This document shows, piece by piece, positions 1,129 through 48,945 of a DNA stretch of 64,000 nucleotides. Location: assembly GCA_947169825.1 (NCBI GenBank), contig CAMVRE010000002.1, positions 1,248 through 65,247 on the forward strand. The letters run 5' to 3'. This DNA comes from an uncultured Verrucomicrobiota bacterium. Lineage in GTDB: Bacteria; Verrucomicrobiota; Kiritimatiellia; RFP12; UBA3636. The notes under the pieces are model-generated. The model made no database searches and had not been told where the DNA came from. It worked only from the letters and a program-made list of their open reading frames with translations. The number at the start of each line of letters is the position of its first letter. The stretch's first letter is position 1. Position numbers and translations under genes: made by a program.

Positions 1129-1235
1129 AGGACGACGAGACGACGGGCTGGCAACGACGAGAAATCGTGCCTCGAATTCCGAAGGATCGAGGAGGCGTCT
1201 CCTGTCGTCTTGTCGTCTCGTCATCCCGTCGTCCT
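1129..1235. repeat. Repeat family A (~100-108 nt long imperfect palindrome), copy 1
   Basis: GGACGACGAGACGACGGGCTGG...GAAATCGTGCCTCGAATTCCGAAGGATCGAGGAGGCGTCTCCTGTCGTCTTGTCGTC. Outer arms are GACGACGAGACGACGGG / CCYGTCGTCTTGTCGTC; the inner stem here is CCTCGA/TCGAGG. Confidence 0.7.
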
Positions 1236-5190: not shown

Positions 5191-5270
5191 GGTCGACGAC
5201 ATCGACGATGCCGACGACGTCGACGAACCGCGCACGGAAGGCCGAAGGCGCGAGGTGCGACCGGAATCGG
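5191..5270. repeat. Repeat family C
   Basis: GGTCGACGACATCGACGA(YGCCGACGACRTCGACGA)ACCGCGCACGGAAGGCCGAAGG...GCGACCGGAATC. Other copies lie at 14226-14305 and 37525-37612, with a partial copy at 32745-32815. It is usually preceded by family E (CTTCGGGGG-N5-8-CCCCCGGTCG). Confidence 0.55.
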
Positions 5271-5308: not shown

Positions 5309-5408
5309 AGGACGACGAGACGACGGGCTGACGGGACGACGAGAAATCGCGCCACCCTTTCCGAAGGTTCGGGGAGGCGGCTCCCGTCGTCTTGTCGTCC
5401 CGTCGTCG
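5309..5408. repeat. Repeat family A, copy 2
   Basis: GGACGACGAGACGACGGGCTGACGGGACGACGAGAAATCGCGCCACCCTTTCCGAAGGTTCGGGGAGGCGGCTCCCGTCGTCTTGTCGTCCCGTCGTC. Confidence 0.7.
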
Positions 5409-5526
5409 TGTCGGGAAACGGGTCTCGCGCTAGCATCAAATGCGAAATGTCCGGCCTGAGTGCAAGAAGGGTTTTTAGGATTCGGGTGCTAGGCGTCGTT
5501 TCGGGTTACGTGATTCACGAAACCTG

Positions 5527-9543: not shown

Positions 9544-9651
9544 AGGACGACGAGACGACAGGCTGACGGGACGACGAGAAATCGCGCCTCCTTTGCCGGA
9601 GGATCGGGGAGGCGTCTCCCGTCGTCTTGTCGTCCCGTCGTCTTGTCGTCC
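9544..9651. repeat. Repeat family A, copy 3
   Basis: GGACGACGAGACGACAGGCTGACGGGACGACGAGAAATCGCGCCTCCTTTGCCGGAGGATCGGGGAGGCGTCTCCCGTCGTCTTGTCGTCCCGTCGTCTTGTCGTCC. Confidence 0.7.
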
Positions 9652-34414: not shown

Positions 34415-34493
34415 GCGGCCTCGCAGGGCGTGGTGGGGTCTGCACCCCGCCACGCCCGCATCGGCCGGAATCTCGCGGCTCGCCGCTCGTGGG

Positions 34494-34592
34494 GGACGAC
34501 GAGACGACGGGCTGACGGGACGACGGGAAATCGCGCCTCCTTTCCCGAAGGATCAAGGAGGCGTCTCCCGTCGTCTTGTCGTCCCGTCGTCC
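34494..34592. repeat. Repeat family A, copy 4
   Basis: GGACGACGAGACGACGGGCTGACGGGACGACGGGAAATCGCGCCTCCTTTCCCGAAGGATCAAGGAGGCGTCTCCCGTCGTCTTGTCGTCCCGTCGTCC. The inner stem is CGCCTCCTT/AAGGAGGCG. Confidence 0.7.
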
Positions 34593-35734: not shown

Positions 35735-36310
35735 TCAGGGACGGCGGGCCAGGTGGCTCCCGGGGTCCAGCAGGAACGGAACGAGGCCGATGGTTTCGAT
35801 GCCCGTCTCGTCCGTCCACGGCTTCTCGAAGCCGCCGGTCACGACGATCTTCCGGAAGAAGTCCCCCGTTTTGCGCAGGGATTCCGTCTCCTGCCTGCGC
35901 TTTTCCGCGTCGGGGACCGCGTAGGCCGACTGGATGTAGACCTTCCCGGCCCCGTCGTTCACGACGAAATCGATCTCCCGCCGGACGTGTTCCTTGTCCG
36001 GTCCGGAGCCTTCCGTGGTCTCGACGACGCCGACGTCGACCGAACAGCCGCGCCCGACGAGTTCGTTGTAGAGGACGTTCTCCATGAGGTGCGCCGGCTC
36101 CTGCTGCCGGAAGTTCGTCCGAGCGTTGCGCAGGCCGACGTCCGTCGCGTACCACTTGGAGGGCGCGGACAGATAGCGCCCGCCCTTCACGTCCCACCGG
36201 TCGGCCCTTTGGAACAGGAAGGCGTCCTCGAAATACTTTAGGAACTTCCGGTGGAAACCCACCGCCCCTGAAAACGACTGGCAGTTAGAAGAGGTTTGGC
36301 GAATTGTCAA
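35735..36310 (-). pseudogene. 5'-truncated AAA-ATPase gene (DUF4143-type C-terminal part only)
   Basis: KFLKYFEDAFLFQRADRWDVKGGRYL..KWYATDVGLRNA...HLMENVLYNELVGRGCSVDVG...REIDFVVNDGAGKVYIQSAY matches the C-terminal part of AAA_14/DUF4143 ATPases. The Walker A/B part is absent, and repeats D and the CCCGTCATT motifs lie upstream. Confidence 0.55.
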
Positions 36311-36371
36311 GCGTTATTTTCCAATCTGGTGGAATTCCACCGGATCGGAAAATTCATACCGCCAACGGCGG

Positions 36372-36425
36372 CCCGTCATTTGCCGGCGAGCCGGCACCCG
36401 TCATTCCGCCGAAGGGGACCGTCAT
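36372..36425. repeat. Short CCCGTCATT + hairpin array (3 units)
   Basis: CCCGTCATT at 36372 and 36397 and a degenerate GACCGTCATT at 36417, separated by TGCCGGCGAGCCGGCA and CCGCCGAAGGGG. Confidence 0.6.
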
Positions 36426-36596
36426 TCCGGCGAAGGCTGCCCCCGCGAAGCGGACTTCCCCCGCACCGCGGCCGGTCGACGAAAGGACAACAGGACACCA
36501 GGACAAAAGGTCGCGCCCCGCTCGCCGAAGGGACAAGGGGCCGTGCGACCAGGTCGCCCGCGCGCCTTCGGCGGAGGGCCGTCAGCCGGAGAACCT

Positions 36597-37366
36597 TCAA
36601 CGGGCCGGCTGCAGGAACATCGCCATGTAGTGCGGAAGCGTAATCTTCTTTCCGACGACTCCGACGTTTCCCCCCGTGAGCTTGTAGCCGAACGGGATCG
36701 ACGGATTGGCGAGAAGCTTGTCCAGCGAGAGTGTCGCCCCCGTTTTCGCCTTCACTTCAACCGGGACGACGCCGTCCGCCGACTCGACGAGGAACTCCAT
36801 CTCGAGCCGTCCGCCGTCTTTGCTGTGGTAGAGCAGGGGGAAGCCGTTGCGCTCCAGGACGCCCGCGACGAGGTTCTCGTAGACGCCGCCCTTGAGCGAG
36901 CCGGCGAGCGTGCCTGCGCGCACTGCACGTCGCCGAAGTGCGGTTCGTCGACGAACCCCGAGACGACTTCCGGCATTCCCCCGACGACGGCGTATTCGCG
37001 CAGCAGCCGGTGGAACGTTTCGTTCACGGCCTCGGGCACCTTTTCGCGCCGTTCGAAATACGGGCGAAGGACATCGATCCGTTCATCGTCCCAGCCCTTC
37101 GCCCACAGGTATTCCCGGAACGAGAGCGAGTGCATCGTGACCTGCCGCTCGAACCCGACGGGGACGGACTTGGGCTGCCGGTCCTTGCGGCGCTTGTACT
37201 TGATGCCCAGCAGCGAGCCGGACGCGACCACGTCGCACCGGCCGTCCTGCGCGAGGAACTTCATCGCCGTCCGGGCGTTCGGGCATTCCTGGATCTCGTC
37301 GAGGAAGAGCAGCGTGCCGTAGAATTCCCGTTTCAGTTCGGCCATGGCGTCTCTTTCCCCATCCAC
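36597..37366 (-). pseudogene. Second DUF4143-type ATPase gene: 5'-truncated, frameshifted, internally shortened
   Basis: Two overlapping frames are involved. Frame 36752-37366 reads LLFLDEIQECPNA (Walker B)...SGSLLG...SFREYL...VVGGMPEVV. Frame 36597-36923 reads KGGVYENLVAGVLERNGFPLLYH...LEMEFLVESADGVVPVEVKAKTG. There is no Walker A region and the frames switch near 36905-36925. Confidence 0.6.
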
Positions 37367-37634
37367 CCGTCTTCGGCGGTGGAAAACGGCGCGATTCTAC
37401 GCCGTGTTGCATCTTTTTGCAACTTGAAAAACGTCCATGTGCAACTTTTTGCAAGATACATTTTCGGAGAATGCCGGTTTTTGCGGGCCGGGCTTCGGGG
37501 GAGGCCAGCCCCCGCGCCACGGCCGGTCGATGACATCGACGACGCCGACGACATCGACGACCCGCGCACGGAAGGCCGAAGGTCGATGGTGCGACCGGAA
37601 TCAGAGCCGCCCGGCTCCGCCGGCGGAGCCGGCA

Positions 37635-37875
37635 CCCGTCATTCCGCGAAGGCGGCCCGTCATTTGCCGGCATAGCCGGCACCCGTCATTCCGCCGAAGG
37701 CGGCCCGTCATTTCCGCGAAGCGGACCCGTCATTTGCCGGCAAGCCGGCACCCGTCATTTCCGCGAAGCGGACCCGTCATTCCGCCGGAGCCGGCACCCG
37801 TCATTCCGCCAAAGGCGGCCCGTCATTTGCCGGCAGAGCCGGCACCCGTCATTCCGCCGAAGGCGGCCCGTCATT
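37635..37875. repeat. Array of 11 direct CCCGTCATT motifs, each separated by a 12-17-nt GC mini-hairpin
   Basis: Motif starts at 37635, 37656, 37682, 37704, 37726, 37751, 37773, 37797, 37819, 37845 and 37867 (spacing 21-26 nt). The spacers are CCGCGAAGGCGG, TGCCGGCATAGCCGGCA, CCGCCGAAGGCGG, TCCGCGAAGCGGA, TGCCGGCAAGCCGGCA and so on; all are self-complementary. Confidence 0.85.
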
Positions 37876-38520
37876 GGATGCGGCCCTGCGGTCGGCGCAG
37901 AGGCGGAAGCCGATCGCGATGTCCCAGAGCCAGTGCCGGTCCGCGGCCCGGTAGGAGGACTCCACCGCCGCGTTCAACCAGCTGCCGCCGCAATAGACGC
38001 GGCCATTGCCACTCGTGGCGGTGTTCGTCCACTCCCACACGTTGCCGTGCATGTCGTAAAGCCCGAACGCATTCGGCTTCTTCAGTCCGACAGGATGCGT
38101 CTTTCCGTCCGAGTTGTCCCTGTACCACGCGACCTTGCCGAGCGTCTTCCCCGTGATTTCCGTCCCGTCCGCGAGCTTGCAGTAGTCGCCCTTCGCGCCG
38201 GCGCGGGCGGCGAACTCCCACTCCTCATCCGTCGGCAGGCGGAACACCAGGCCGGACCCCTTCGCGGCGGGCTGTGCGTTGAGCGTCTCCAGAAACTCCC
38301 GGCAATCATCGCACGAAACGCGCTCCACGGGATTCTTCGCGCCCTTGAACCGAGCGGAGTTCCAGCCCATCACGGCCTCCCACTCCGCCTGCGTGACCGG
38401 GAACCGGCCCATCCGGAAGCCCCTGCTGGGAATCGGGACCATCGAGGCGACGATGTCCTCGACGACCGCGGGATCGACGGAGGCGGCCTCCTTCTTCGTG
38501 ACGATCTTCTCCTGTTCCAT
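37849..38520 (-). CDS. FGE/SUMF1-family domain protein (223 aa, domain only)
   Basis: Track ORF 37849-38940, trimmed to ATG 38520 (GGAGGAG upstream). GRFPVTQAEWEAVMG, NPVERVSCDDCREFLETLNA, LVFRLPTDEEWEFAARAG, NAFGLYDMHGNVWEWT, CGGSW, GFRLCADRR. The last 11 codons and the stop lie in the first unit of the CCCGTCATT array. Confidence 0.8.
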   Translation of the reverse strand: MEQEKIVTKKEAASVDPAVVEDIVASMVPIPSRGFRMGRFPVTQAEWEAVMGWNSARFKGAKNPVERVSCDDCREFLETLNAQPAAKGSGLVFRLPTDEEWEFAARAGAKGDYCKLADGTEITGKTLGKVAWYRDNSDGKTHPVGLKKPNAFGLYDMHGNVWEWTNTATSGNGRVYCGGSWLNAAVESSYRAADRHWLWDIAIGFRLCADRRAASNDGPPSAE

Positions 38521-38613
38521 TCTGGCTCCTCCTGTGGCGGGGTCGTTTTCGTGCCGTCGCGGCGCTCCCGCCGCAACGCCGCCCAGTCTACCACCGCGCG
38601 CGATACGGTTCAA
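38521..38613 (-). promoter_or_regulatory. Portable promoter + leader module, copy (TTGAAC-N17-TAGACT)
   Basis: Minus strand: TTGAAC (comp. 38608-38613), TAGACT (comp. 38585-38590), leader GGGCGGCGTTGCGGCGGGAGCGCCGCGACGGCACGAAAACGACCCCGCCACAGGAGGAGCCAGA-ATG. Confidence 0.5.
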
Positions 38614-38904
38614 GGAAGTTTTCGGCCGCCACCGGGGGGCGGGGGAGCGCCCCGCACCGCGGCCGTGATTCGTCCGCGCTATGGCGCCAGCAGCGTGTCG
38701 GCCGGGACGAGGAAGTCGAACCACCCCCGGCGAACGACGGACGGCGCCAGCTCCCCGTCGTAGACGAGCGCGGTCCGGACCGAAAGGCCCGAGGCGGGGA
38801 AGAAGCGACTTGAGGTTGTTCGGGTGTCGGCTGCGGGAGAAGTTTCCCTGTCTTCCTTGTTCGACGGACAGGATCCGGCCGGGGGGGGGAGCCAGCCGTC
38901 CGAG

Positions 38905-39160
38905 ATCTGGAGCAAACGGTCTGGAATGCGATGCCGTCATCCACCTTCATGGCGGACGGTACGGACTCGTCGAAATCAAGCTCGGCGGCAAGGAGCTGGT
39001 CGAGAAAGGGGCTTCCTCCCTGAAGAAGCTTTCCTCGAAGCTCGACACGTCGAAAATGCGCAAGCCCTCGTTCCTGATGGTCTTGACCGCGGTGGGCGAT
39101 GTCGCTTACCGGCGCGAGGACGGCGTTGTGGTCTGCCCGATCTCCGCGCTGAAACCCTGA
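38905..39160 (+). pseudogene. Third DUF4143-type ATPase remnant (extreme C-terminus only)
   Basis: End of track ORF 38681-39160: ...LECDAVIHLHGGRYGLVEIKLGGKELVEKGASSLKKLSSKLDTSKMRKPSFLMVLTAVGDVAYRREDGVVVCPISALKP. This is the E.D....iEvKlg...L..L pattern of the nuclease-like C-terminal domain, with nothing homologous upstream. Confidence 0.45.
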
Positions 39161-39263
39161 ACTCGCGTCGCGGTGCCGACTGCGTCGATGCCCGGCCGGG
39201 AGAGGGGGGGCGGCTTCCCCCGGAGACCGGCCGGTCGACGCGGTCGGACCCGCACACTCGCGC

Positions 39264-46093: not shown

Positions 46094-46152
46094 AGGTTGA
46101 AGGGGGGAAGGGGTTGAAGGGGTTGAAAGGGGTTGAAGGGGTTGAAAGGGGA
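46094..46152. repeat. Tandem GGGGTTGAA(A) 9-10-nt repeats (5 GTTGAA cores)
   Basis: GTTGAA at 46096, 46113, 46122, 46132 and 46141. The minus strand reads CCCTTTCAACCCCTTCAACC... The array lies between the kinase stop and the membrane-protein gene. Confidence 0.7.
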
Positions 46153-46383: not shown

Positions 46384-48831
46384 TCAGGGAGACACGCGGA
46401 GCGCGGCGGCTTCGGCTTCGAGGGCGCGGGCGCGGTCCTCGTCGCCGAGGAGACGGTGGGCGCGGACGAGGTTGTCGAGGATCTCGGCGATGACGGGGCG
46501 GTAGCGCGCGGGATCGGAGACGAGGAGCGGCGCGAGGAGGCCGCGCATCTCGTCCCAGGCGGAGACGGCTTCCTCGTAGCGCTCCTGCTCGGCGCAGGTC
46601 CGGGCGAGACGGCCAAGGGCCTGCGCGCAGGCGAGGCGGTAGCCCTCGCCGTGAGCCTTGAAAAGATCCCGCCAGAGTTCGGTGGCCCGGCGGTAGGCCG
46701 CGATGGATTCGAGGCGGGCTCCGGTCTCCCGGTGCAGCTCGCCGAGGCGGTAGTGGCAGCCGGCGAGGAGGTCGAGAAGCGGCTGCTCCGCAGCCGCAGT
46801 GACAAGTGACGAGTGACGAGTGACGAGTGAGCCCGAGCGAGAGGCGTTCGGTGTTTCGACCGGAGAAGGGGTCTCGTTCGGGAAGAGGAAGGGCTCGAGG
46901 GCCTCGATGGCGCGGGAGGTCATCGTGAGGGCGGCGGCGGTTTCGCCGGCCCGATGGAGCATCCCGCCGAGGGCGGCCGCCAGGACGAAGAGCTGCGCCT
47001 TGCAGCCCGGATCGTCCGCCGGCGCGTAGCGGGCCCAGAGCAGCCCCGCTTCTTGGAGATCGGCGGCGGATTCGCGGAAGCGGCCCTCCATGCATTCCAT
47101 GTAGGCGCGCTCGGAGAGAAGCCAGGAGCGGAGCGGCCCGTAGCGCGCGGGATCGGACTCCACGAGCGGATCGATGGTGGCGAGGGCGTCGCGATAGGGC
47201 GCGTCGGCCGCGCCTTGGTCGGCGTTGGCGACGTAGGTCCACGAGAGACGGGCGAGGCAGAGGGCGAGGCGGACGCGCGCCGCGGGGGCGGCGTTGGTGG
47301 CTGCGGCGGCCCTCCGGGCGGTTTCGACGGCTTCGAACCAGGCGCTGTTCGCGCGCCCGATGGCGGCGCGATCCTGTCTCCAGGAGGACCAGGCGCCGTC
47401 CCCTTCGCGAACTTTGAGGAGAAGCTCCGCGTCCCCGCCGGAGAAGGCCTCGGCCTCAAAACGAACGATGGGGAGCAGCCGAAACGTGCCGAGCAGCTGC
47501 AGGGGGCCGCGGTCCTCGCCCTGCCAGACCGAATCGAGGCGCGGCGGCATCGGATGGGCGGGGAAGACGATGGCAACGGGAGGAGGCTGCGCCTCCCCCG
47601 AACCCCCACCAGCGAGGACAGGCTCTGCGGCCTCTGCGCTCTCTGCGTGAGAACCTATGGGAGGAGGCTGCGCCTCCCCCGAACCCCTTTCGGAAACGGA
47701 ACCGGGCTCTGCGTGGAAGCGGATGGTGACGGCCGCGGCTGCCGCTACGGCCGCGACGGCGGCGAGGGCGGCCCGCGCCGCGCGGCGCCGGCTTCGCGTG
47801 GCGGGGTCGATGGCGCGGCCGATCGCATCCAGTCTCCGCGTGATGGCGGCGGGGTCGGCGAGGCGGCGGGCGGGATCGGGATCGAGCAGGTCGCGCAGGA
47901 AGGGATCCCAGGCGCGGACGATGCGCGAAGGATCGTAGGAGGAGGGCGGGCGCAGGGAGCGCGGGCGATCGCCGGTGAGCGCCTCGTAGAGGACGGCGCC
48001 GAAGGAATACCAGTCGAGGGCCGGCGTGAGTTCCGCGCCGGCGCGGAACTGCTCGGGCGCGGCGTAGGCGGGGGAGCCGAGGAACTTGCGCGCACCGGAT
48101 TCGTCGAGGGAGATGGAATCGGGGGCCTCCGCGGCCCCCGAACCCCTCTCTGGCCGGGACGGAGCCCGGCCATCAGGACTCGCCGGAGCCCGGCCATCAG
48201 GACTCTCTGCGGACTCTGCGTGAGACCCTCCTCCTCCGCGTGTGAACTTCGCGAGGCCGAAGTCGGCGAGGAGGGCGCGGCCGGAGGCGTCGAAGAGGAC
48301 GTTGGAGGGCTTGACGTCGCGATGGAGGATGCCGACGGCGTGGGCGGCGGCGAGCGCGCCCGCAAGGTCGCGCGCGATGCGCAGCACGGCGGCCTCGGGC
48401 AGCGCCTTGCCGCCGTCGAGGAGGGCGGCAAGCGGGAGGGGACGAGGGGCGCCGGCGCCGCCCTCCGCCCCCTCCGGCGCGAAGCCATGGGGATAGGGGC
48501 AGAGGAGGACCTCGTCGCAGAGGCGGGCGATCTCGGACGGGGAGAGGAGGACGGCCGGCGTGACGAGATAGCGAAGGCCCGTGGCGGGGTCTTCCCCGGC
48601 GTGCAGGACGGGGAGGATCGACGGATGGTCGAGGGCGGCGAGGGCGCGGGCCTCGCGCTCGAAGCGGCGGGTGCGCGTGGCGCTGTCCGAGGGCCTCATC
48701 GCCTTGAGCGCCACGTCGCGGCCGAGCGCGCGATCGCGCGCCAGCCAGACCTCCCCCATGCCGCCCTCGCCGATCGGACGGAGAAGCGCGAAGGAGTTGT
48801 CGATGACGAGGCCAGGACGAAGGTCTTTCAA
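46384..48831 (-). CDS. Ser/Thr protein kinase with one TM segment and a large helical-repeat (TPR-like) C-terminal domain
   Basis: 815 aa, TTG start. GEGGMGEVWLARD, VALKAM, HRDVKPSNVLF, DFGLAKF, GSPAYAAPEQ. TM helix AALAAVAAVAAAAAVTIRF. The linkers contain in-frame copies of repeat family F and other short duplications. Confidence 0.85.
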   Translation of the reverse strand: MKDLRPGLVIDNSFALLRPIGEGGMGEVWLARDRALGRDVALKAMRPSDSATRTRRFEREARALAALDHPSILPVLHAGEDPATGLRYLVTPAVLLSPSEIARLCDEVLLCPYPHGFAPEGAEGGAGAPRPLPLAALLDGGKALPEAAVLRIARDLAGALAAAHAVGILHRDVKPSNVLFDASGRALLADFGLAKFTRGGGGSHAESAESPDGRAPASPDGRAPSRPERGSGAAEAPDSISLDESGARKFLGSPAYAAPEQFRAGAELTPALDWYSFGAVLYEALTGDRPRSLRPPSSYDPSRIVRAWDPFLRDLLDPDPARRLADPAAITRRLDAIGRAIDPATRSRRRAARAALAAVAAVAAAAAVTIRFHAEPGSVSERGSGEAQPPPIGSHAESAEAAEPVLAGGGSGEAQPPPVAIVFPAHPMPPRLDSVWQGEDRGPLQLLGTFRLLPIVRFEAEAFSGGDAELLLKVREGDGAWSSWRQDRAAIGRANSAWFEAVETARRAAAATNAAPAARVRLALCLARLSWTYVANADQGAADAPYRDALATIDPLVESDPARYGPLRSWLLSERAYMECMEGRFRESAADLQEAGLLWARYAPADDPGCKAQLFVLAAALGGMLHRAGETAAALTMTSRAIEALEPFLFPNETPSPVETPNASRSGSLVTRHSSLVTAAAEQPLLDLLAGCHYRLGELHRETGARLESIAAYRRATELWRDLFKAHGEGYRLACAQALGRLARTCAEQERYEEAVSAWDEMRGLLAPLLVSDPARYRPVIAEILDNLVRAHRLLGDEDRARALEAEAAALRVSP
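46798..46832. repeat. Heptanucleotide tandem repeat (AGTGACG)n inside the kinase CDS
   Basis: AGTGACA AGTGACG AGTGACG AGTGACG AGTGAGC, encoding ...GSLVTRHSSLVT... on the minus strand. The unit length is not a multiple of 3. Confidence 0.7.
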
Positions 48832-48945
48832 GGGTAAAGTTGAAAGGGAAAAGTGTAAAGTTGAAAAGGTTGAAGGGGTTGAAGAGTTGAAAAGCGAACA
48901 ACTTTAGACTTTAAACTTTAGACTTTAAACTTTCAACTTCTGCAT
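48832..48945. repeat. AT-rich simple-repeat block: 5 GTTGAA cores, then (AAACTTTAGACTTT)~2.5 and an inverted TTCAAC
   Basis: GTTGAA at 48839, 48860, 48869, 48878 and 48886; ACTTTAGACTTTAAACTTTAGACTTTAAACTTTCAAC spans 48901-48937. The block covers the kinase upstream region, the sigma-factor stop and the last ~10 sigma codons. Confidence 0.7.

Follow-up and report, generated by a model that had tools for sequence, protein, structure and literature searches.

Hairpin repeats headed by CGTC and the array in the window

CGTC-tagged repetitive extragenic palindromes (REPs), which include Neisseria dRS3 and Rickettsia RPE-4/RPE-6, are located mostly downstream of open reading frames (ORFs), their termini can supply stop codons, and head-to-tail dimers of them were called negligible (Di Nocera, De Gregorio, Rocco 2013, PMC3733652). 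The NTS, given as CGTCATTCCCGCGMAVGCGGGAATCYRG, is bound only as single-stranded DNA (ssDNA) of one strand by SsnA, a 94-aa GIY-YIG nuclease that cuts just upstream; the cutting hinges on three bases 5' of the palindrome and the binding hinges most on the C after the palindrome, and also on the stem sequence (Chenal et al. 2025, PMC11893778). That paper uses neither "tandem" nor "arrays". In E. coli, REPs near a stop codon can stall ribosomes, and a role in 3'-end mRNA protection has been proposed for REP/BIME clusters, as reviewed in another paper (PMC12306157). Here, we describe an array in a 64,000-nt stretch (the window) of contig CAMVRE010000002.1 from an uncultured Verrucomicrobiota bacterium (assembly GCA_947169825.1), in which the 9-mer CCCGTCATT, named the head, alternates with GC-rich hairpins at the 3' end of an FGE-sulfatase domain gene (the FGE gene). 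With moderate confidence, we read this array as a locally expanded head-to-tail cluster of genus-specific tagged mini-hairpins, variable by slippage and acting as a gene-boundary element of the REP/BIME type.

The head was found in 11 exact copies on the plus strand between 37635 and 37875, in direct orientation and at 21–26-nt spacing, as had been reported from an inspection of the letters alone (the sequence-only reading), and the array was also picked up by Tandem Repeats Finder. From base composition, 0.41 copies are expected in the whole window. The 3.08-Mb assembly contains 27 exact copies against ~17 expected; 11 of the 27 belong to this array, which is the largest copy of the repeat family in the source genome, and three further CCCGTCATT pairs were noticed elsewhere in the assembly. 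Exact heads outside the arrays occurred at about the chance rate and the copies beyond chance were in arrays, not scattered singly over the genome. Nine of the 10 spacers are perfect GC hairpins of three recurring types named A, B and C (Table 1), with one copy of A being short of one base (CCGC-GAAG-GCGG). The earlier claim that every spacer is self-complementary held for these nine and failed for the seventh, CCGCCGGAGCCGGCA, which is only partly so; it carries the left half of A and the right half of B and, as judged from its letters, is the product expected of a small deletion between adjacent units. On the gene strand, the array reads as a hairpin followed by AAUGACGGG, and the head-bearing strand is antisense to both neighbouring genes, each of which is on the minus strand. 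The count of units comes from a short-read assembly of 240 bp of near-repeats and may be some units off.

Other identities of the repeat were also checked. A coding repeat was rejected on account of periods that are not multiples of 3 and a TGA in every unit on the gene strand, and a 239-aa plus-strand ORF was rejected as coding as it lies antisense to the strong FGE domain match. CRISPR was rejected in agreement with the sequence-only reading, as the constant part is 9 nt (vs ~23–50 nt for CRISPR repeats) and the spacers are palindromic and fall into three recurring types; cas genes were not searched.

The occurrence of the repeat was monitored in the source genome (G000) and 11 relatives of the same genus (other G numbers), an uncultured genus of gut and rumen, all fragmented metagenome-assembled genomes (MAGs) that are 56–96% complete. 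The strict family pattern CCCGTCATT-N12-17-CCCGTCATT was present in G000 and nine of the 11 other genomes. Outside the genus, 49 genomes covering 24 further genera of its family and order were without the pattern, and the reversed control gave 0 matches. With a looser pattern, as many as 53 pairs of neighbouring units were detected in a single genome of the genus; the true array numbers are probably higher because many arrays sit at contig ends. One member of the genus is on deposit as a MAG of an "uncultured Verrucomicrobia bacterium" (L093, the same sequence as G004:C166). The unit statistics were collected from 209 units of the source genome and fetched loci. The unit consists of CC(G/T)TCATT and a 5–8 bp hairpin with a C-GNA-G loop. 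The heads included 95 copies of CCCGTCATT and 38 of CCCTTCATT, and the period, ranging from 20 to 30 nt, peaked at 24 nt (104/209 units). A hairpin was recognised in 207 units and in 184 of these began immediately 3' of TCATT. Stems of 5 bp or more without a mismatch were present in 189 of the 209 units, with 69 different stem sequences, and the loop was GAA, GCA, GGA or GTA in 152 units and of the complementary type in ~5.

Because the DNA is 69% GC, the global folding energy was uninformative, and therefore covariation was used instead. An alignment of 83 distinct 24-nt units with six stem pairs was compared with 500 shuffles. The stem pairs were formed in 95.6% of cells vs 62.5% after shuffling, and the 143 double-sided changes were matched by none of the 500 shuffles. 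When the partner positions were slid, pairing fell to 25–61%. TCATT was invariant and the closing C:G pair was kept in 74 of the 83 units. The pairing, the covariation and the loop bias therefore indicate that structure, loop and linker are constrained and the letters of the stem are free. Thus, each unit keeps the unpaired head CC-CGTC-ATT, the pairing, the closing C:G and the G-N-A loop, on a stem of free sequence. DNA mini-hairpins with d(GNA) loops closed by C:G are exceptionally stable (PMC3201870, PMC13037366), and thus the favoured form of the unit is the DNA optimum on the head strand. Furthermore, the loop bias tracks the head strand whatever the direction of the gene.

The length of the array was compared at its junction with the FGE gene, where CGTCATTGGATKCGGCCCTG, in its fuller form CGTCATTGGAT(G/T)CGGCCCTG, lies between the last head and the gene. 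The junction was found in two other species of the genus, with four heads in G007 and five in G004, and in eight metagenome contigs with three to six heads, so that the 11 heads of the window are the longest run at this junction and the ten related junctions carry 3–6. The FGE side of the related junctions is 74–83% identical to the window; their heads are nearly all exact, the variants being CCTTCATT as first head in several arrays and a single CCCGACATT. All of these arrays are built from the hairpins A, B and C in differing orders and numbers, and in G004 and the metagenome contigs an A-type hairpin takes the position of the perfect palindrome that precedes the first head of the window. Contig L222 has the same ATPase-promoter-array-FGE layout as the window with a 94% identical left flank, and the promoter-side flank occurs in three unrelated versions, one of which is an antisense array. 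The conserved junction, the variable units and the three flanks therefore suggest that the array was acquired once at the 3' end of the FGE gene. On these alignments, its history since then is one of gain, loss and reshuffling of units, with the array as a breakpoint for the exchange of neighbouring modules. Among the three options that the sequence-only reading had offered, an expansion-prone REP cluster agreed best with 3 to 11 heads in shuffled order at one junction and with a head of the CGTC-REP and NTS-SRM type.

The following mechanism is proposed. The hairpins would extrude when the CGTCATT strand becomes single-stranded during replication, repair or transcription. The identical 9-mers could misalign, and units would be gained, lost or reordered in place through slipped-strand mispairing or unequal recombination. 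About ten stable hairpins would be placed between the stop codon of the FGE gene and the promoter of the next gene, where their most likely effect would be REP/BIME-like, such as 3'-end protection or trimming, or attenuation or insulation of the upstream message. The 3'-UTR hairpin stack, the second option of the sequence-only reading, is a plausible candidate, as the array comes straight after the FGE stop codon and before the next promoter.

Relation to CGTC-tagged REPs, NTS/SRM and other repeats

The head was also searched across phyla as two nearby CCCGTCATT copies, with each prokaryotic species represented by one genome, and the matches listed are a sample of its distribution outside the genus. 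They come from many phyla, and with few exceptions their 9-mer heads a canonical hairpin such as CCCGTCATTCCCGCGAAGGCGGGAATCC. By its sequence, this type of hairpin is the CGTC-tagged REP (PMC3733652) as well as the NTS or Ssn-related motif (PMC11893778). Aligned with the start of the NTS, unit A and its head (CGTCATTCCGCCGAAGGCGG) match it at all but two of 20 positions. It was noticed that canonical SRM/NTS hairpins are often preceded by 2–10 exact tandem copies of their own head region, each made of the head, part of the left arm and a few flanking bases (12–25 nt), and followed by one complete hairpin; such loci occur in many phyla and some viral contigs (Table 1). A link of the window array to phages was rejected, as the viral contigs hold the ordinary SRM type only.

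As in CGTC-tagged REPs, a 5' CGTC tag that takes no part in pairing immediately precedes the GC-rich hairpin of the family, and all 11 heads of the window read CC-CGTC-ATT. The C-rich tail after the hairpin, the multi-copy occurrence mostly near gene ends, the head-to-head facing of paired arrays, the copies lying in ORFs or supplying stop codons and the lack of a known dedicated transposase are further likenesses. Unlike these REPs, which have a loop of 4–5 nt, the family has a 3-nt G-N-A loop closed by C:G; the ATT after CGTC is unpaired, and the stem sequences are free (69 types). CGTC-tagged REPs form mostly head-to-head dimers, whereas the units of the family stand head-to-tail in runs of up to 11 and only whole arrays pair head-to-head. 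With NTS/SRM, the family shares an identical CGTCATT head (CCCGTCATT in the arrays of other phyla), the C after the palindrome, a G-rich purine loop on the head strand, the strand asymmetry and the clustering around genes for exported or surface proteins. Unlike NTS/SRM, it lacks the outer ATTCCC...GGGAAT stem, and its stems vary where SsnA targets need a fixed stem sequence. Since the head is the same as that of CGTC REPs and NTS/SRM, the family has most likely branched off from that class; with the A/T-started stem of 8–9 bp absent, the case for descent is built on the loop and the head-to-head layout as well as the head. The features are shared and the tests of membership failed; the family was therefore filed as a variant outside the Ssn system, which probably works like the CGTC/SRM class and descends from it.

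The small palindromes clustering at gene boundaries, their copy number varying between strains and the mosaic, reshuffled intergenic regions that they mark are features common to the family, the E. coli REP/BIME elements and the Neisseria intergenic mosaic elements (NIMEs). Unlike the family, BIMEs alternate in orientation, have fixed REP sequences and are served by RAYT transposases, and NIMEs separate 50–150 bp filler units with dRS3, whereas the 22–26-nt units of the family abut in one orientation. Membership in the GTAG REP/RAYT (REPIN) group was rejected, as the GTAG tag is absent and the Y1 loci are without arrays. The short tandem heptanucleotide repeats (STRR type) have the same heptamer, CGTCATT (or AATGACG), and plain runs of it replace the hairpin units at an orthologous place (G000:C29 vs G009:C8). 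Inverted pairs of such heptamers also flank intergenic cassettes and are present in gene leaders, but STRR arrays are without interleaved hairpins.

Position of the arrays and weighing of the explanations

The positions of the arrays relative to genes were taken from ~100 kb of fetched loci with a crude heuristic that calls open frames with high third-position GC (GC3). Twenty-two of 66 arrays were sense and inside the 5' end of an ORF, 16 were antisense and at or within ~120 nt after a stop codon, which is the class of the window array, six answered to both descriptions and 22 were left unplaced by the GC3 classifier. Because intergenic distances are short, a strand-flip control of these classes was confounded in part. 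All frames of the unit are free of stop codons on the head strand and every unit has a TGA on the other strand, which explains part of the sense/antisense distribution. Antisense and sense arrays are often adjacent with their heads facing across a promoter region (G009:C10, G011:C301, G010:C136).

The sense arrays form leaders between the ATG and the hydrophobic core of the signal peptide, for example MKHTILRPCLDAARHSAATPPPFIRRVAAPFICGGAAPFIRRAAALVILATL. They were noticed in many genes for secreted proteins (Table 1), and their last unit often encodes IRRAAALVI, that is, the positive start and the beginning of the core. As successive units are read in different frames (RHS / PSF / PFI / PVI), it is the nucleotide sequence of the leader arrays that is conserved. 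By eye, no in-frame ATG, GTG or TTG was present between array and core in G000:C47 from 3927 and in the ORF at 8621 of L049 (G009:C8), and the leader array therefore appears to be translated. REP-like DNA thus appears to be read as part of signal peptides. The variant head GATGTCATT creates an in-frame ATG that would give a canonical short signal peptide, MSLRRAAALVI (MSLRRAAALVIAAL) in L049 (6384–6500) and L065 (900–1038), so that the upstream units in that gene family may be 5' untranslated region and not coding. The leader length differed in-frame in three orthologue pairs, by 24 nt in two and by 21 nt in the third. Periods divisible by three made up 62% of the units in sense arrays vs 35% in antisense arrays, a contrast of limited weight because the arrays are related to each other. 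A phase-variable contingency repeat such as the leader pentamers of Neisseria opa was rejected, as the window array stands after a stop codon and the leader differences are in-frame.

Several observations weigh against an expanded REP/BIME-type boundary element descended from the CGTC class. CGTC-tagged REPs have stems of 8–9 bp that start with A/T, whereas those of the family are of 5–8 bp and GC only. The published degenerate pattern for the canonical SRM gave 0 matches in 37600–37900, and its 24 matches in the whole source genome (vs 6 in the reversed control) included no canonical one. An Ssn-type GIY-YIG gene (cd10448) was not found in the 12 genus genomes, which are MAGs of the completeness given above. 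The PF01541 domain had one match per genus genome, in a UvrC-sized frame (534–853 aa where not truncated by the end of a contig), and none in G002; small GIY-YIG genes in other genera of the order adjoin tRNA genes and are without CGTCATT repeats. No RAYT gene adjoining the arrays was found, nor a GTAG tag. PF01797 (Y1_Tnp) gave weak partial matches, 2–11 per genome, and the six loci inspected were without arrays; these matches were noticed to be multi-copy ORFs, mostly frames of ~100–680 aa, with the first half of the Y1 domain only (E ~1e-6). The source genome has only ~9 arrays of the family, too few for a role as terminators in general. Behind stop codons, antisense arrays are favoured as a tendency (~16 to 5) and not as a rule, and the folding energy of the whole array surpassed that of GC-matched shuffles only slightly (z = -1.8 as RNA and -2.5 as DNA). 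The boundary function and the ongoing instability are what we infer, and the proposed mechanism leaves the near-invariance of the 9-mer across species unaccounted for. This invariance is the main reason why some trans-acting factor stays a live rival.

In its explicit form, this rival holds that the array is the target of an ssDNA structure-recognising enzyme, in an NTS-like system without the GIY-YIG nuclease that would control boundary recombination and cassette shuffling, and we consider it unlikely. It would account for a 9-mer almost invariant across species in which the adjoining gene is only ~80% identical, for the strand-specific loop bias and for synteny that breaks exactly at the promoter-side edge of the array with three different left flanks, and the positions kept, namely the head and the C after the palindrome, are those important to SsnA (PMC11893778). 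Furthermore, a subfamily of four-helix-bundle (4HB) genes of PF05635 (the Avd / 23S rRNA intervening-sequence family) lies between antisense and sense arrays in five genomes; the antisense block and a gene stand on one side of the 4HB gene and the sense leader block and a second gene on the other, an order that echoes NTS-ssnA-NTS. However, SsnA requires the stem sequence as well as the fold (PMC11893778) and the stems here are free, no candidate nuclease emerged besides the UvrC-sized PF01541 frames, and the Y1 transposase-like loci carry no arrays. The other 4HB genes of the genus are flanked by unrelated 7–9-nt repeats (AGTGACG/CGTCACT heptamers at G000:C29:8100-8700, unrelated 8-nt repeats in others), so the 4HB link is with inverted short repeats in general. 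Inverted blocks on one transcript could form a long stem that loops out the 4HB gene, as in rRNA intervening sequences. A related proposal, to which we give somewhat less credence still, takes the arrays as the cis element of an Ssn-independent system in which a structure-reading protein, with the 4HB protein as candidate, would recognise CCCGTCATT-linked C-GNA-G hairpins in ssDNA as a modular punctuation of genes. If this were true, antisense copies would close genes with a stop codon and a hairpin stack, and sense copies would form the N-terminal region of signal peptides.

That the array acts mainly as RNA, with the hairpin stack selected to terminate or stabilise the FGE message or with 11 single-stranded AAUGACGGG decoy sites that pair with the CCCGUCAUU linkers in the leaders of mRNAs for secreted proteins, is about as improbable as the ssDNA-enzyme target. 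The array does begin in the last FGE codons and lies upstream of the next promoter, antisense arrays elsewhere also start shortly after stop codons (0–80 nt), the 9-mer of a 3' array is the exact complement of that in leader arrays, and long interrupted stems could arise where an antisense and a sense array share a strand. Against this, the loops of the gene strand are UNC, the complement of the favoured GNA, and therefore the loop preference follows the DNA head strand and not the transcript; in addition, an Rfam search of 36000–39200 gave no match at E <= 1, the RNA folding z is weak and no U-tract follows the main array. The iteron or centromere option of the sequence-only reading, to which a multi-site operator may be added, supposes a protein bound to double-stranded DNA at 9-mers on one helix face. 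Constant direct repeats about two helical turns apart would suit it, but the spacing, which at 21–26 bp in this array shifts by as much as half a helical turn and spans 20–30 bp in the family, destroys the helical phasing, the stems covary where a duplex-binding site would not need it, and dozens of arrays exist in the relatives, many inside ORFs. The contig is chromosomal in context, with repair operons and no replication or partition gene adjoining the array, and we regard this option as very improbable. Equally slight is the chance that the length of 11 units is partly an assembly artefact of a shorter array of a repeat family that is itself real. All ten related junctions have 3–6 heads and many arrays of the family sit at contig ends in short-read MAGs; however, this one is internal to a 66-kb contig and its units are non-identical (loops ATA, AA, AGA, AAA and GAA; one hybrid), which gives unique paths through the repeat.

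Surroundings of the array and meaning of the family

The FGE gene encodes 223 aa and not 224 as the sequence-only reading had it. Its domain match ends at residue 207, and, as that reading had noted, the array overlaps the last codons: the final eight and the TGA (37849–37851), NDGPPSAE*, are supplied by the array and read from AATGACGGG-hairpin-AATGA. Downstream of the gene on the minus strand come, in this order, the remainder of the array, the 9-nt repeat block, a promoter-like site, an ATPase remnant and a mini-array (Table 1). The 9-nt block belongs to a portable flank common to G004 and L222–L224. The reading of the ATPase gene as dead is supported, as it is frameshifted with pieces that match only fragments of AAA_14 and DUF4143. 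The mini-array lies directly 3' of this remnant and 5' of the next promoter-like region. A three-unit version of the array had been announced at 36372–36425; it is present (36372–36426) with two exact heads, but its third head is mismatched (ACCGTCATT) and the later hairpins are degenerate. Read along the minus strand, a T-rich tail comes after the last hairpin of the mini-array.

Table 1. Positions of the features in the window, composition of the array and loci referred to in the text (handles precede positions outside the window).
Feature	Position	Strand	Basis or detail
Main array, 11 heads and 10 spacers (A, B, C, one A/B hybrid)	37635..37875	+	Sequence, Tandem Repeats Finder
Head starts	37635, 37656, 37682, 37704, 37726, 37751, 37773, 37797, 37819, 37845, 37867	+	Head-to-head spacings in order: 21, 26, 22, 22, 25, 22, 24, 22, 26, 22 nt
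Spacer type A			CCGCC-GAA/AAA-GGCGG
Spacer type B			TGCCGGC-ATA/AA/AGA-GCCGGCA
Spacer type C			TCCGC-GAA-GCGGA
Perfect 22-nt palindrome CCGGCTCCGCCGGCGGAGCCGG, directly 5' of first head	37611..37632	+	Sequence
FGE-sulfatase domain gene, 223 aa	38520->37849	-	PF03781, E = 6.3e-33
Block of 9-nt tandem repeats CGACGACAY, between array and next promoter	37528..37561		Tandem repeat search
Sigma-70-like promoter TTGCAA-17-TAGAAT, for the downstream ATPase pseudogene	37394..37422	-	Consensus match only
Frameshifted AAA_14/DUF4143 ATPase remnant, between both arrays	36597..37345	-	Domain matches
Decaying mini-array with leading hairpin CCGCCAACGGCGG	36359..36456	+	Heads at 36372-36426
Other 7-9-nt repeat blocks of the window	1204-1233, 5192-5226, 5311-5413, 9546-9651, 34493-34592, 36484-36510, 37528-37561, 46095-46151, 46798-46830, 48830-48939		
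Leader arrays	G000 C47:1798-1829, C47:3966-4022, C90:8101-8129, C206:2498-2526, C315:3115-3143; L049, L050, L051, L063, L065, L066		
PF05635 genes between arrays	L051 (G002:C281), L060 (G003:C374), L212 (G008:C291), L050 (G011:C184), L049 14333-14877 (G009:C8)		
Further PF05635 loci	L206-L209, L211		
PF01797 matches, examples	G000:C65:1580-1762, C113:1049-1231, C53:62-244		
SRM head-copy loci, many phyla and some viral contigs	L110, L092, L105, L118, L133, L136, L075, L228, L231, others		

Copies of the surroundings were noticed on another contig of the source genome. G000:C78:4723-5129 is a 99%-identical copy of part of the ATPase remnant (within C78:4049-7083 vs window 36580–38500), and the same contig holds 79–92% identical copies of the neighbouring modules and FGE paralogues. 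From these comparisons, the region around the array is a reshuffled and duplicated mosaic. Other blocks of 7–9-nt tandem repeats, such as GTCGTCTC/GACGACGA, AGTGACG, GGTTGAAGG and AACTTTA, fill the intergenic regions of the window, often as inverted pairs. On the minus strand of G000:C21:1520-1700, repeated GCAGAGAGCGCAGAGAACGCAGAG and CGTCTCG blocks stand before an array of four units, and the HAESAENAE-type repeat of this locus recurs as the C-terminal tail of a protein on C47. As far as the repeats themselves tell, the CGTCATT-hairpin array is one case of a wider short-repeat habit of the genus.

What is known in this array, on the comparison of its letters, is the head motif of the CGTC REP and NTS-SRM class, and what is different is the head-to-tail arrangement and the free stems. 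For annotation, such arrays give long spurious ORFs, altered C-termini and CRISPR look-alikes. The 3 to 11 units at one conserved junction make a natural series for hairpin-driven repeat instability, and the same repeat is seemingly tolerated or used in the genus both as coding sequence that leads signal peptides and as gene ends with stop codons. These findings suggest that a hairpin repeat known across bacteria can keep its head, vary its stems and expand into long arrays in a lineage where the nuclease thought to accompany it was not found, a result relevant to how CGTC-type repeats are maintained and spread.

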